From an uncultured Gammaproteobacteria bacterium (GTDB lineage: Bacteria > Patescibacteriota > Patescibacteriia > Patescibacteriales > UBA12465), in contig CAZHYP010000001.1 of assembly GCA_964536885.1 (NCBI GenBank), positions 1 to 48,363 of the forward strand: a DNA stretch of 48,363 bases. Reading direction: 5' to 3'. Within the stretch, counting starts at the first letter, position 1; every line of letters begins with the position of its first letter. Of the stretch, positions 43,953 to 48,363 are shown piece by piece. A program made the position numbers and the translations under genes. The notes beneath the pieces are model-generated. The model saw only the letters and a program-made list of their open reading frames with translations, searched no databases and was not told the origin of the DNA.

Positions 43953-44147
43953 TTATTTATTAAAAGATGATAAATATATAACTAATAATATTAGACCAAC
44001 AATAGACAAAATAATTTTTCCGATAAACTTTGCAGCACCATTTACAACATGACCGCCAACCATTTTCCAAAATTTTTTAGAAAAAAGAAGATAAAAAACA
44101 AATATCAAAGCTGCCAATATAATAATTGTTCCTAAAATATTTTCCAT
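43953..44147 (-). CDS. 64-aa two-TM peptide coupled to hsdR
   Basis: Its ATG lies 1 nt after the hsdR TAG (TAGtATG). Confidence 0.55.
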   Translation of the reverse strand: MENILGTIIILAALIFVFYLLFSKKFWKMVGGHVVNGAAKFIGKIILSIVGLILLVIYLSSFNK

Positions 44148-44148
44148 A

Positions 44149-47100
44149 CTATTCTAAATTAGAACCACTCCAGTCTCTGCACAAAACTTCAGCCTGTTCT
44201 AAAACTAATTTTGTGGCTTGTTCTTGTTTGTCTGGTGGATATTTATATTTATTAAGCAATTTCTTGATTAAAACTCTAAGTTTAGCCTGCACCATTTCTT
44301 TCATGGTCCAATCAATAGAAGTATTTTTTCGTAACATTATTACTAACTCTTGAGCAATCTTTTTTAAAGTTTCATCACCTAGTTCCATAACAGCACTTTC
44401 ATTGTCACATAGCGCATCGTAAAAAGCGACTTCGTCTTCTCTTAAATTTAAGTTAGTACCACGATCTTTTTCAGCTTTAATCTTTTTAGCAAGTTCCACT
44501 AATTCATTAATGACTTGAGCGGCCTCGATAGTTTGATTTTGATAACGACGAATAGTATCTTCTAACATTTTAGAAAAAGCTCTCGATTTAACTAAAAACT
44601 TTCGTTCCATTATTCTTACTTCATCATTTAATAACTTCTTCAATAGTTCCAAAGCAACATTTTTGTGTTCTAAATGACGAACTTCATCTAAAAATTCGTC
44701 TGATAAAACTGAAATATTTGGAGTTTTTAAGCCAGCAGCATCAAAAATGTTAATTACTTTATCAGAAGTAACAGCACTGGCAACTAATTGTTTAATCGCC
44801 TGATCATAATCTTCATCAGTTGGACCACCGCCGCTACCGTTAGACTCGAACTTAACAATTACTGCTCTGACTAGTTGGAAGAAAGCTAATTCATCTCTGA
44901 TCTCTAAAGCCTCGGTACTTGGCACGGCTAAAGAAAAAGCTTGAGATAATTCCGTTACCAATTTTAAGTATCTTTCTTTGCCTTTATCTAAGCTAATAAT
45001 AAAATCCATGGCTCCGGAAATAAAATTAGTTTTTTCGGTTGGCATTGCCGAAAAGTATTTAGTATAGTCAAAACCATAATATAAATTCTTTACTAATTCA
45101 TACTTTTCTCGCATTAAAGCGATAGCTTCTTCTTGAGGGATGGTTGGCGCCTCTTTATTGTTATCAGAATAATAAGATAAGGCTTGTTTTAGAGCTGGAG
45201 CGATGCCTAAATAATCTACAATTAGACCACCCTGTTTATCTTTATAAACACGATTAACACGAGCAATGGCCTGCATTAAACCATGACCTTGCATTGGTTT
45301 ATCAATATACATCGTGTGCATTGATGGAGCATCAAAACCAGTTAGCCACATATCACGAACAATAACTAATTTAAGTTCATCTTTAGGGTCTTTCATACGA
45401 CGAGCGAGCAATTCTCGTTCTTCTTTGTTATGAATGTGAGGTTGAAAGTTAGCTGGATCACTAGCCGATCCGGTCATTACGACTTTAATAAAACCTTTAT
45501 TAATATCTGAACTAGCCCATTCTGGTTTTAACTTAATAATCTCATCATATAATTCCACAGCAATACGACGACTCATAGAAACATACATTCCTTTGCCGTC
45601 TACCGCCTCTAAACGATCGGTAAAATGATTAACAACATCTTGAGCGATTAAAGCAACTCTCTTTTCAGAACCAATCATCGCTTCCAGTTTTGCCCATTTA
45701 CTTTTTAACTTCTCCTGACGAGCTACCTCTTCGCCTTCAGTTAATTCTTCAAATTCGGCGTCAATTTGTGGCGTCATTTCTTTAAGCAAATCTATTTTAG
45801 CGAGTCGCGCTTCATAATAAATCGGTACAGTAGCCTTATCTTCAACAGCTCGAGAGATATCATAAATATCTACATATTCACCAAAAACAGCTCGAGTGTT
45901 TTTATCACTTAATTCAATCGGAGTGCCAGTGAAACCAATAAATGAGGCATTAGGTAAGGCGTCGTGCATATGACGAGCAAAACCATCCATAAAGTCATAT
46001 TGACTGCGATGAGCTTCGTCGGCAATTACAATAATATTAGAGCGATCAGAAAGCAAAGGATGCTTTTCGCCACGTTCTTCTGGCATAAACTTCTGAATGG
46101 TGGTAAATACCACGCCACCAGAGGCGACGCTTAATAACTTTTTTAAATCACCACGACTTTGAGCTTGAACTGGAGTTTGTCTAATAATTCCCTGCGAAGC
46201 TGCAAAGACACCAAAAAGCTGGTCATCTAAATCATTGCGATCAGTTAAAATAACAAGTGTTGGATTATTTAAAGCTTGAATAATTTTACCAGCATAAAAA
46301 ACCATGGTTAATGATTTTCCGGAGCCTTGAGTATGCCAAACCACGCCACCACGACGGTCACCACCAGCACCAGAAACTTCTATAATTTTAGCCACCGCTT
46401 TATTAGTCGCGTAATATTGATGATAGGCTGCTAAAATCTTAAAAGTATTTTTACCATCACTCTGAAAAACAATAAAACTCTTAATGATATCTAATAAAAT
46501 ATTTTTAGCAAAAACATTACGAAGTAATACTTCCATTTCTGATTGAGAAGTTTTATCATCTTCATTCTTCCATTTCATAAAACGCTCAAAATCAGCCGTT
46601 ACAGAGCCCAAACGAACATTAACACCGTCACCAATAATACATAATTCATTATAAGCAAACAAAGATGGGATATCTGATTTATAAGTTTGCAACTGATTAA
46701 AAGCTCCTTGAACGGTAGCGTTTTCTTTGCCAGGATTTTTTAATTCAAAAATAACAAAAGGTAGACCATTAACAAAAATAATCACATCCGGACGACGGTT
46801 ATGATTATTTTCAATAATAGTAAATTGATTAACGGCAAAGAAATTATTATTTTCCATATTCTCTAAATCAATTAATTTTACTTTATCATGTCTAGTTAAA
46901 CCAGCTTTATCTTGATAAGTAATATCAACACCATCAACTAATATATTATGAAAAGATTCATTAATACTAATTAAACCTGGTTTAGACCAAGGCAAGCTAA
47001 TTATTTTATCAACTGCTTCTTTTTGAGCACTAACTGGAATCAAATGATTAATACGAGAAATAGCCGATTCTAAACGACCACGAAGCACAACGTCGGAATA

Positions 47101-47235
47101 ATTTTTAGCTTCTCTCTCTGGGCTCGTGCTATCAAAAGCTAAATCTGGACCAAAGCCGATTTCGTAACCAAGTTCGTTTAGCCAATCTAAGGTTGCTTGT
47201 TCAAGTGTTGATTCGTTGTATTTATTATTCATCAT
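44149..47235 (-). CDS. hsdR: Type I restriction enzyme R subunit (HsdR-like helicase-nuclease)
   Basis: The HsdR N-terminus reads [17 protein letters not shown]. Walker A is GSGKSLTM. The DEAH box is ADEAHRSQ. Length is 1028 aa. Confidence 0.9.
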
Positions 47236-48071
47236 ACTGTTTTTGATAATTGATCAATGGTTGCTTGTAATACCTGCCAACAAATTTTAGCAGTGTGTTC
47301 GTCGGGATTAAAATTAGACGACATTTGTTGATATGGGTGAATATAATTTCTAAAATCTCTTAAAGCGTGACTAAATTTTTTTACATCTTCACCAATTAAA
47401 TTTAAATCACGAGCAACATTTATAAAATCATTCAAACTCCAATCATAAAATTGTTTTACTTTACCAATTTTATCTTTTGGGGCAGAAACTGATTTATTAA
47501 AATCAGTAGCTTTATTACTTGCCACTCCAAGTAAAATACCTTCCAATACACTGCCACACAAAAAAATTACAGAAAGAGAAACTTTAGCATTTAAGCACTT
47601 ATTAATTTCACCCAATCTCTGTTTTAATATAGATGAAATAACATTGGTTAAACCTAATTTATCAACATCTATATCTTTAAATTCTTTATCTAAAAAATCG
47701 TCTTCCTTTACTTCGGTTATACTATTTTTTATACCATTTAATTTATTAGATATTTCTTTTCCTTTATTTATTAAATCGATCGAAAAATCTTTTTTCTCAA
47801 GACGATCTAATAAAATCTGATTTTCAATATACTCAATAATTTTAACAATAGATTTACCAACCAAATGATCATCTGCTTCTTGCCAAAAACCTCTAACTCT
47901 ATTTGCCTTTGACCCGCTGCCATAATTAAATTTTTCATCATAAATATTTATTCCAACATCATCAAAGAAAAATTCACCTATTGTGCGGTCTGAAAAGTTC
48001 AAAACATATCCACCACCCATTTGAAATAATTTTTCTAATACTTGTTTTTCATTTGTAGTTAAACTAGACAT
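47232..48071 (-). CDS. Hypothetical protein with a HEPN-like C-terminal motif
   Basis: ATGA overlap with hsdR. The C-terminal region contains [13 protein letters not shown]. Confidence 0.7.
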
Positions 48072-48079
48072 AAAAAAAA

Positions 48080-48363
48080 TTATTCAGAAATTAAATTTTT
48101 CAAACCATTCTCTGCCCTCTCAATTAAATCATCGTAAGTTAAAACTTCTACCCAATGAAAATATGACAATAATCTTCTCATATTCTTAGGTTCAGCCGAT
48201 ATTGTCTGAGTAGTACAATTAATCATCTCTTTATCCCTTCTCCCAATTAAGAGGATTCCTTTTGGTTTATAATATTTGCAATATTTATCAATTAAAACTT
48301 CAGAGCCATCGTTATCGTGTCTATCTTGAGTATATTCACTATAATAATACTCTAGATAACCAG
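48080..48363 (-). CDS. C-terminal fragment of an unidentified, possibly nuclease-family (Shedu/DUF4263-like) protein. The N-terminus lies outside the window.
   Basis: My own translation gives ...GYLEYYYSEYTQDRHDNDGSEVLIDKYCKYYKPKGILLIGRRDKEM...NMRRLLSYFHWVEVLTYDDLIERAENGLKNLISE*, with the stop at 48080-48082. Confidence 0.55.
   Translation of the reverse strand, partial: GYLEYYYSEYTQDRHDNDGSEVLIDKYCKYYKPKGILLIGRRDKEMINCTTQTISAEPKNMRRLLSYFHWVEVLTYDDLIERAENGLKNLISE

Follow-up and report, generated by a model that had tools for sequence, protein, structure and literature searches.

Genes at the contig end

The stretch of DNA analyzed here (the window) is one entire contig of 48,363 base pairs (bp), CAZHYP010000001.1 of assembly GCA_964536885.1, and the subject of this report is the group of four genes that closes it, arranged around hsdR, the gene for the translocase-nuclease subunit of a type I restriction-modification (RM) system. 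We read the region, with a probability of about 85%, as the 3' part of a conventional type I RM operon that depends on the modification (M) and specificity (S) subunits and that is cut inside its sduA gene by the end of the contig. The four open reading frames (ORFs) lie on the minus strand, in the order sduA fragment, ORF of 279 amino acids (aa), hsdR and ORF of 64 aa, and all of them were confirmed:

48080..>48363, minus strand: 3' end of sduA; in-frame translation gives the C-terminal 93 aa of a Shedu nuclease of 367 aa; gene cut by the contig end
47232..48071, minus strand: gene for a 279-aa two-domain HEPN protein, with an AbiJ-NTD1-like N-domain and a probable DUF4145-type HEPN domain; predicted abortive-infection RNase, embedded cargo
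44149..47235, minus strand: hsdR, type I restriction translocase-nuclease of 1028 aa, apparently intact (Pfam, PADLOC, TIGR00348)
43953..44147, minus strand: gene for a 64-aa peptide with two transmembrane segments; found rarely in the slot after hsdR and evolving fast

Read on the sequence, the stop codon of the sduA fragment is followed after 8 nucleotides (nt) by the start of the 279-aa ORF, whose own stop shares a 4-nt overlap (ATGA) with the hsdR start, and a single nucleotide separates the hsdR stop from the start of the 64-aa ORF (TAGtATG). The first-pass annotation of this DNA had described the same four ORFs with the same junctions, and it was also correct in stating that the gene directly upstream is not hsdS (it is sduA), that the 279-aa ORF is HEPN-like (it has a probable DUF4145/HEPN domain) and that a small peptide is no canonical component of type I systems. 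Neither hsdM nor hsdS is present within the window, an edge effect explained by the fact that the contig ends inside sduA.

The 1028-aa protein is an apparently complete HsdR with the three parts expected in a type I system: a PD-(D/E)xK nuclease at the N-terminus, a translocase motor of superfamily 2 (SF2) and, at the C-terminus, an assembly domain. Its Pfam domains are HSDR_N (2e-49), SWI2_SNF2/ResIII (SWI2_SNF2 at 1e-82), a T1R_D3-like domain and T1RH-like_C (1e-124), it scores 1132 bits against the PADLOC model REase_I and 3e-194 against TIGR00348, and its translation shows a nuclease motif (PD...ELK), a Walker A motif (GSGKS) and a DEAH box. The closest solved structure is the HsdR of EcoR124I (1e-45).

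Specificity and modification subunits

An exact-sequence look-up of the 279-aa protein led to a 3.5-kb Logan contig (L001), which is 100% identical to the window across an overlap of 1,564 bp and runs 2.2 kb beyond it. There the sduA gene is complete (1095-2198): its 367-aa product matches SduA_C of Pfam at 5e-14 and the PADLOC SduA model at 1.8e-21 over model positions 46-386 of 396, with the D...E-V-K nuclease motif legible in the translation, and the fragment in the window matches the same PADLOC model at 1.9e-6. Only 8 nt upstream of sduA lies hsdS (Methylase_S, 9e-17; PADLOC Specificity_I, 2.3e-77), itself cut by the end of L001. Exact look-ups of HsdR and of the 64-aa peptide for contig extension returned no match.

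The modification gene was found in relatives. It stands upstream in every sibling operon examined, namely L002, L003, L084 and L085 (L086 covers the L085 operon on a shorter contig), and 26 of the 28 related loci in which hsdS and hsdR are both seen have it as well. Judging from these siblings, hsdM very probably lies upstream of hsdS in this genome too. The first-pass annotation had offered two alternatives, either that two accessory genes separate hsdR from M and S genes placed further upstream, or that HsdR had been recruited into a methylase-independent composite; the former is supported by the hsdS of L001 and the hsdM of the siblings. It had also suggested extending the contig past position 48363 and had named hsdM and hsdS directly upstream, together with accessory ORFs not conserved beside hsdR in related genomes, as the arrangement that would speak against the composite. 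The extension recovered hsdS in that place, and hsdM very probably belongs there, although it was recovered in siblings only and not in this genome.

Cargo between hsdS and hsdR

The gene order of the siblings (x, gene given without a label) is as follows:

L002: hsdM-DUF2321-164aa-hsdS-sduA-279aa-hsdR
L003: hsdM-DUF3800-x-x-hsdS-Abi_C-279aa homologue-193aa-hsdR
L084: hsdM-x-x-hsdS-Fic-281aa-hsdR
L085: hsdM-340aa-hsdS-DUF3644-275aa-hsdR-63aa peptide

L002 is the nearest to the operon of the window, with 89.6% DNA identity to L001 over 3 kb, a 279-aa copy that is 96% identical and an HsdM that matches the PADLOC model MTase_I at 2.9e-233. In L085, whose HsdR is 93% identical to that of the window, the two genes between hsdS and hsdR are others altogether, matching the PADLOC candidates PDC-S19 and PDC-S32. 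Siblings with near-identical hsdR genes thus carry different genes in this interval.

The same holds for a wider set of loci of this HsdR clade (L084-L140), collected by scanning metagenomes with the conserved C-terminal part of HsdR and annotated with local hidden Markov models. One to three genes separate hsdS from hsdR in 27 of the 28 loci where both are seen, and the interval between hsdM and hsdS also holds genes in 20 of 26. The cargo between hsdS and hsdR includes UvrD helicases, AAA_15/AAA_21 ATPases, AbiU2 HEPN proteins, ThsA-Macro, ThsB-TIR, SduA, Fic, DUF3644 and Schlafen/AlbA_2 proteins and trypsin-like peptidases, and many cargo proteins of the clade have no Pfam match at all. The type I operons of this clade clearly illustrate a natural slot for defense cargo and are a good hunting ground for new defense genes.

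The embedding of defense genes in type I operons is already published and common, and the window is one further example of it. Type I RM operons often contain embedded genes, 96.7% of them in the same orientation (Payne et al. 2024, bioRxiv 10.1101/2024.01.29.577857), and precedents include the rlo genes of Campylobacter (C. jejuni) and tgvAB in the hsdR-tgvAB-hsdMS arrangement of V. cholerae VPI-2. With these operons the present one shares a co-oriented frame of hsdM, hsdS and hsdR with unrelated defense genes nested in it, and cargo that varies between similar operons and comprises HEPN RNases, GmrSD-like proteins, ABC ATPases and known systems. It differs from them in the pairing of Shedu with an AbiJ-NTD1-like/DUF4145 protein and in the peptide after hsdR, neither of which we found described in the literature.

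Shedu itself (SduA, DUF4263) is a single-gene system, and the gene found here agrees with it in its DUF4263/SduA_C nuclease domain and in the near-full-length match to the PADLOC model. In contrast to a free-standing Shedu, this sduA lies inside a type I operon; the window covers just the C-terminal 93 residues of its product, and no solved homologue is detectable by sequence, a search of the PDB having given no match.

A further observation concerns the genes that precede hsdM in sibling operons, which encode a helix-turn-helix (HTH) protein and an M78 (ImmA/IrrE-like) peptidase:

L002 192-1171; L085 5739-6718; L086 150-1129: HTH protein and M78 peptidase, as separate genes
L003 1858-2937: HTH-M78 peptidase fusion

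This pair may regulate the whole defense operon.

The 279-aa protein

The cargo gene next to hsdR belongs to a large family. Homologues of its product number 5349 at E<=1e-3, and the best 120 of these 5349 are 64-96% identical over the full length; among the representatives of clusters at 50% identity there are 3137, 222 of them at E<=1e-30. The family occurs in Patescibacteria, Acidobacteriota, Elusimicrobiota, Gammaproteobacteria, Campylobacterota, Melainabacteria and other groups. Two parts of the gene are of particular interest:

47727..48071, minus strand: N-terminal helical domain (aa 1-115), a mobile module also found in Ymh-type and Abi_C-type HEPN proteins
47337..47360, minus strand: codons of the HEPN motif R238-D-F-R241-N242-Y-I-H245, defined on an 80-sequence alignment

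The C-terminal domain was assigned to DUF4145 largely through its relatives, as 21 of 22 close homologues match this family at E<=0.01 (best 8.7e-6) and two homologues carry precomputed PF13643 matches. In a diverse alignment of the family (80 sequences, 34-96% identity), the sole invariant residues are R152, E177, R241 and H245, while R238 and N242 are conserved in at least 90% of the sequences, and the motif R238-x6-H245 has the R-x4-6-H spacing of HEPN RNases. A model built by AlphaFold2 on the same alignment reached a predicted local distance difference test (pLDDT) score of 93.4, and the best non-spurious Foldseek neighbors in the PDB, weak matches though they are, all belong to the HEPN proteins, namely 7AE6, 1UFB (probability 0.96; TM-score 0.64, normalized to the target), MntA-HepT, 1WOL and 2HSB. 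This model replaced a first one made from 22 close homologues, which was set aside for a C-domain pLDDT of 65 and meaningless Foldseek matches. Other searches with the 279-aa protein gave no match: a profile of the family against PDB sequences, tblastn against phage genomes, the PADLOC (PADLOC-DB v2) and NCBIfam models, and ATPase or P-loop families; a Foldseek search of the viral structures in BFVD gave nothing significant.

The N-terminal 115 residues, all-helical in the model, have no structural match. They recur with other C-terminal partners. At 60-70% identity the N-domain alone is shared by about 40 genome loci in which the C-terminus is Hypoth_Ymh (e.g., L039 10001-10753), in proteins of about 250 aa encoded mostly between hsdM and hsdS, and at 38-44% identity it is found in 'abortive infection family' proteins of Pseudomonas plasmids that carry Abi_C (e.g., L141 4001-4816). 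A mostly helical module of 100-140 aa fused to AbiJ/Abi_C, Ymh and DUF4145 HEPN domains has been described as AbiJ-NTD1 (Anantharaman et al. 2013, PMC3710099), and DUF4145 is tabulated in the same work as 'in operon with R-M'. The label AbiJ-NTD1-like fits our N-domain, as one helical module with the same trio of HEPN partners is recovered here, the likeness being to the published description rather than to reference sequences. The DpnII/MboI-NTD, which is also fused to DUF4145 (PMC3710099), is the alternative label; the 279-aa protein has no match to Pfam DpnII at E<=0.1.

The only characterized DUF4145 protein that we found is RAZR (PD-T7-4), an abortive-infection RNase made of a zinc finger and a HEPN domain (PMC13017515), and it is because of RAZR that we infer RNase activity for the 279-aa protein. 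Like RAZR, the 279-aa protein ends in what is probably a HEPN domain of the DUF4145 type, in which R and H are conserved, and it is predicted to be a single-gene defense of the abortive-infection kind; the two also share the PDB entry 7AE6, which is the top structural neighbor of the 279-aa model. They differ in the sensor: that of RAZR, a Cys4 zinc ribbon, assembles on ring proteins of the phage, and its place is taken here by a domain of about 115 aa, all-helical and with no Cys4; alignments of the N-domain contain no conserved cysteines and no Cys4 motif, and the protein does not match the PD-T7-4 model of PADLOC. Taken together, our analyses make it most likely that the 279-aa protein is an abortive-infection RNase that works on its own and is carried along in the operon. 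Its family is large, highly conserved and absent from catalogues such as PADLOC, and is a reasonable candidate for phage challenge.

Is the 279-aa protein a guardian of restriction?

A weaker alternative, which we regard as unlikely, is that the 279-aa HEPN protein acts as a guardian in the manner of PrrC, being silenced by the RM complex and released to cut RNA when a phage deploys anti-restriction, with its N-domain sensing either the status of the RM system or the anti-restriction proteins themselves. PrrC, the anticodon nuclease of the type IC locus EcoprrI, provides a precedent for an embedded RNase guard (PMC12707154), and some features agree: in both cases an effector of the RNase type, as predicted for the 279-aa protein, lies in a type I operon beside hsdR, the HsdR of the window is related to that of EcoR124I, and the 279-aa gene overlaps the start of hsdR by 4 nt.

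The genomic context of the family can also be read in favor of a guardian. Of 35 genome loci that have a full-length, DUF4145-form homologue, 11 place it in a same-strand run with hsdM, hsdS or hsdR; for the Ymh-form the figure for type I is 16 of 41. Among 53 scanned proteins that neighbor Ymh-form genes at loci with no labeled type I gene, 12 match an EcoRI-like methylase, 7 an N6_N4 methylase, 8 GmrSD_N and 8 HNH, and on a Pseudomonas plasmid an N-domain-Abi_C gene directly follows a type ISP restriction enzyme. The remaining DUF4145-form loci adjoin McrBC, OLD-like ATPases, TIR, SIR2, GmrSD, Abi_alpha or housekeeping genes. As an observation in its own right, carriers of the N-domain adjoin restriction genes of types I, II (EcoRI-like methylase and HNH), ISP and IV far more often than not.

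What argues against a guardian comes in part from the same counts. About two-thirds of the DUF4145-form loci lie outside type I operons, several of them alone beside housekeeping genes, whereas PrrC is almost exclusively embedded; the first-pass annotation had suggested surveying whether the 279-aa family is conserved next to hsdR, and with 11 of 35 loci in a type I operon there is no strict tie. The RM systems beside which the family lies (types I, II, ISP and IV) work by unrelated mechanisms, which makes a specific physical hold on the RNase unlikely, and the slot exchanges the 279-aa gene for unrelated cargo while hsdR stays unchanged. Finally, PrrC and RloC are defined by an N-terminal ABC-type ATPase, and the 279-aa protein contains neither an ATPase nor any other PrrC-like domain, only its small helical N-domain.

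A bolder version of the idea would make the N-domain, as found with DUF4145, Ymh and Abi_C HEPN domains, a general sensor of restriction failure or anti-restriction, the whole family RM-guardian RNases, and the fast-evolving membrane peptides after hsdR a second abortive layer, aimed at the membrane and coupled to the translation of hsdR. We consider this speculative and give it a low probability. If it were true, a family thousands strong beside type I, II, ISP and IV genes would represent a widespread class of RM-guardian RNases.

The 64-aa peptide and the position after hsdR

The product of the 64-aa ORF is strongly hydrophobic, with two transmembrane-like segments around a basic loop, and the ORF was not called as a gene in the source annotation. 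L085 has a homologue of 63 aa, 43% identical, with the same two-segment layout and the same 1-nt junction after the hsdR stop; both peptides contain the LFSKKFW loop and end in NK. As DNA, their genes are 60% identical, against 87% in the adjacent 3' ends of hsdR, and their only indel is 3 nt long and in frame, the hydrophobic class being kept at 49 of 63 positions. One segment departs from this divergence:

44067..44087, minus strand: LFSKKFW codons (CTTTTTTCTAAAAAATTTTGG), 21 nt identical to L085 (about 16256-16276) in an ORF otherwise about 50% diverged

This identity may come from codon bias; the alternative is an element acting at the level of the nucleic acid.

The homologue in L085 is the only one that we found. 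No exact copy of the peptide was found by exact-sequence look-up, no homologue in a word-indexed search of 5.8 billion protein clusters, and nothing in a metagenome scan with the alignment of the two peptides; a relaxed tblastn over about 140 loci recovered the L085 homologue alone. No such peptide follows hsdR in 18 related loci, and it is absent from L003, L084, L087, L088, L142 and about 55 further relatives. Matches to Cap15_TM (0.0025), DUF973, Ecr (0.006) and PADLOC Mem_04 were rejected as weak and composition-driven.

The position that it occupies usually holds soluble defense-like genes (DUF262/GmrSD-like, YgjP-like, PD-(D/E)xK) and is a second variable slot. Sometimes membrane proteins unrelated to the peptide are found there: L142 has one of 244 aa and L087 one of 270 aa, and those of L095, L108 and L109 measure 77-81 aa. 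Those of L142 (4237-4971) and L087 (about 8584-9400) have several N-terminal transmembrane segments and overlap the hsdR stop, so that membrane proteins recur at this place.

It could be asked whether a functional tie links the peptide with HsdR or with the operon, the peptide acting as a membrane-disrupting effector or small toxin that is released along with the expression of hsdR, or as a membrane tether or regulator of the restriction complex. Consistent with a tie are the identical stop-start junctions in the window and L085, the maintenance of the ORF despite 60% nucleotide identity, the conserved LFSKKFW loop and the other membrane proteins that siblings hold after hsdR. Nevertheless, a tie of this kind has in our view little chance of being right: one homologue came out of all those clusters, metagenomes and loci, siblings with near-identical hsdR genes (L084, L088, L003 and L142) do without the peptide, the slot mostly receives soluble genes of the defense type, and the family matches that might have hinted at a function are the composition-driven ones given above. 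For the 64-aa ORF, the survey of homologues that the first-pass annotation had suggested, to look for conserved co-occurrence with hsdR, ended with one homologue and absence from about 60 relatives.

The opposite view, that the ORF is no gene and that its frame stays open by chance in 3' untranslated sequence rich in AT and in T, is very improbable. It would account for a reading frame that went uncalled in the source record and that belongs to no known family, and at a guanine plus cytosine (GC) content of 24%, T-rich codons yield hydrophobic residues by default. In composition-matched shuffles, however, the probability of an open frame of this kind is about 0.002 for each of the two ORFs, in sequences that are only 60% identical to each other; the five other frames all carry stops (2-8 in the window copy, 1-11 in that of L085), and the one indel is in frame. 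Because frame, start, stop and two-transmembrane pattern are kept despite 60% DNA identity, the 64-aa ORF is, on this pattern of conservation, a real gene, rare and fast-evolving, and no general partner of HsdR. It is thus a small membrane peptide that the source annotation missed.

Interpretation of the operon

The order that emerges is hsdM-(cargo)-hsdS-sduA-279-aa HEPN gene-hsdR-64-aa peptide, with hsdS observed in this genome and hsdM supplied from its siblings. In such an operon HsdR would dock on an M2S1 methyltransferase at unmethylated bipartite sites, translocate DNA with ATP and cut it. The interval between hsdS and hsdR is a cargo slot that exchanges unrelated defense genes between near-identical operons. 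The cargo here consists of two probably independent single-gene systems, the Shedu PD-(D/E)xK nuclease and the AbiJ-like HEPN protein; the N-domain of the latter probably senses infection, and its DUF4145 HEPN domain, probably as a dimer, may cleave RNA and lead to abortive infection. The sduA and 279-aa genes are presumably co-transcribed and would be translationally coupled with the restriction genes, giving a layered defense, with the two-transmembrane peptide in the second variable slot after hsdR.

Some points weigh against this account. The hsdM of this exact genome was not seen, since L001 stops inside hsdS, and a homologue search with the partial HsdS gave neither an exact full-length copy nor a longer contig. 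For the 279-aa protein, the DUF4145 score of the window copy itself is 21.5 bits (E 2.4e-4), below the Pfam cut-off of 23.1, the Foldseek E-values of the HEPN matches are only about 1, and no experimentally characterized member of the family was found in the literature. The N-domain family, moreover, lies beside RM genes more than expected of purely independent cargo, which leaves room for a link to restriction.

The notion of a methylase-independent composite of HsdR, HEPN protein and membrane peptide, to which the tight coupling of the genes and the lack of hsdM and hsdS inside the window had given rise, is hardly credible any longer, given that hsdS lies 8 nt upstream of sduA on an identical contig, that hsdM is present in all siblings, and that close relatives whose HsdR C-termini are 90-98% identical do without the HEPN gene or without the peptide, the accessory genes being interchangeable cargo. 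An HsdR working without its methylase and specificity subunits would have been remarkable; the operon is conventional, and present understanding of type I systems is unchanged by it. What remains of interest is the AbiJ-NTD1-like/DUF4145 family, which the catalogues lack, and the small membrane peptide.

End of the operon and the rest of the window

Two features lie just beyond the peptide gene:

43906..43935, minus strand: promoter-like site ATGATA-18-TATAAT (10/12 matches), in the spacer after the peptide
43721..43879, minus strand: ORF of 52 aa, soluble, with no family match; 20-nt overlap with the start of the gene that follows

Between the window and L085, this spacer is far better conserved than the peptide ORF, and in both places the conserved promoter-like spacer precedes a small soluble ORF. 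A scan for promoters and terminators gave nothing above the shuffled background in this AT-rich DNA, and the weight of the promoter-like site comes solely from the conservation of the spacer with L085. Homologues of the 52-aa ORF follow hsdR operons in L085 (16463-16711, 82 aa), L088 (1024-1146, 50 aa) and L142 (5055-5261, 68 aa). From this arrangement, the restriction operon probably ends with the peptide, and the promoter-like site probably starts the next transcription unit with the 52-aa ORF.

Further downstream, the stretch 42169-43740 (minus strand) has tightly packed genes and a GC content of 24-26%, compared with about 35-40% elsewhere in the window. It encodes a 250-aa protein with N-terminal transmembrane segments and a nuclease-related NERD domain (Pfam, 3.5e-11), a 178-aa protein with multiple transmembrane segments that overlaps the former by 20 nt, and a 97-aa ORF; this string of genes does not follow hsdR in L085. 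The stretch may be another defense or mobile island. Downstream of it, a few genes apart, are a 447-aa SPFH/Band 7 (flotillin-like) protein and an S49 (SppA/NfeD-like) peptidase (38003-39346 and 41427-42155, minus strand); pairs of SPFH and NfeD-type proteins are a common membrane module. Low GC, gene content and the taxa of the closest homologues raise the suspicion that the window comes from the Patescibacteria. The window holds no tRNAs, almost all of its genes are on the minus strand, and its gene content is chromosomal, with TyrRS, GlmS, malic enzyme, a P-type ATPase and a Wzy_C-TPR protein.

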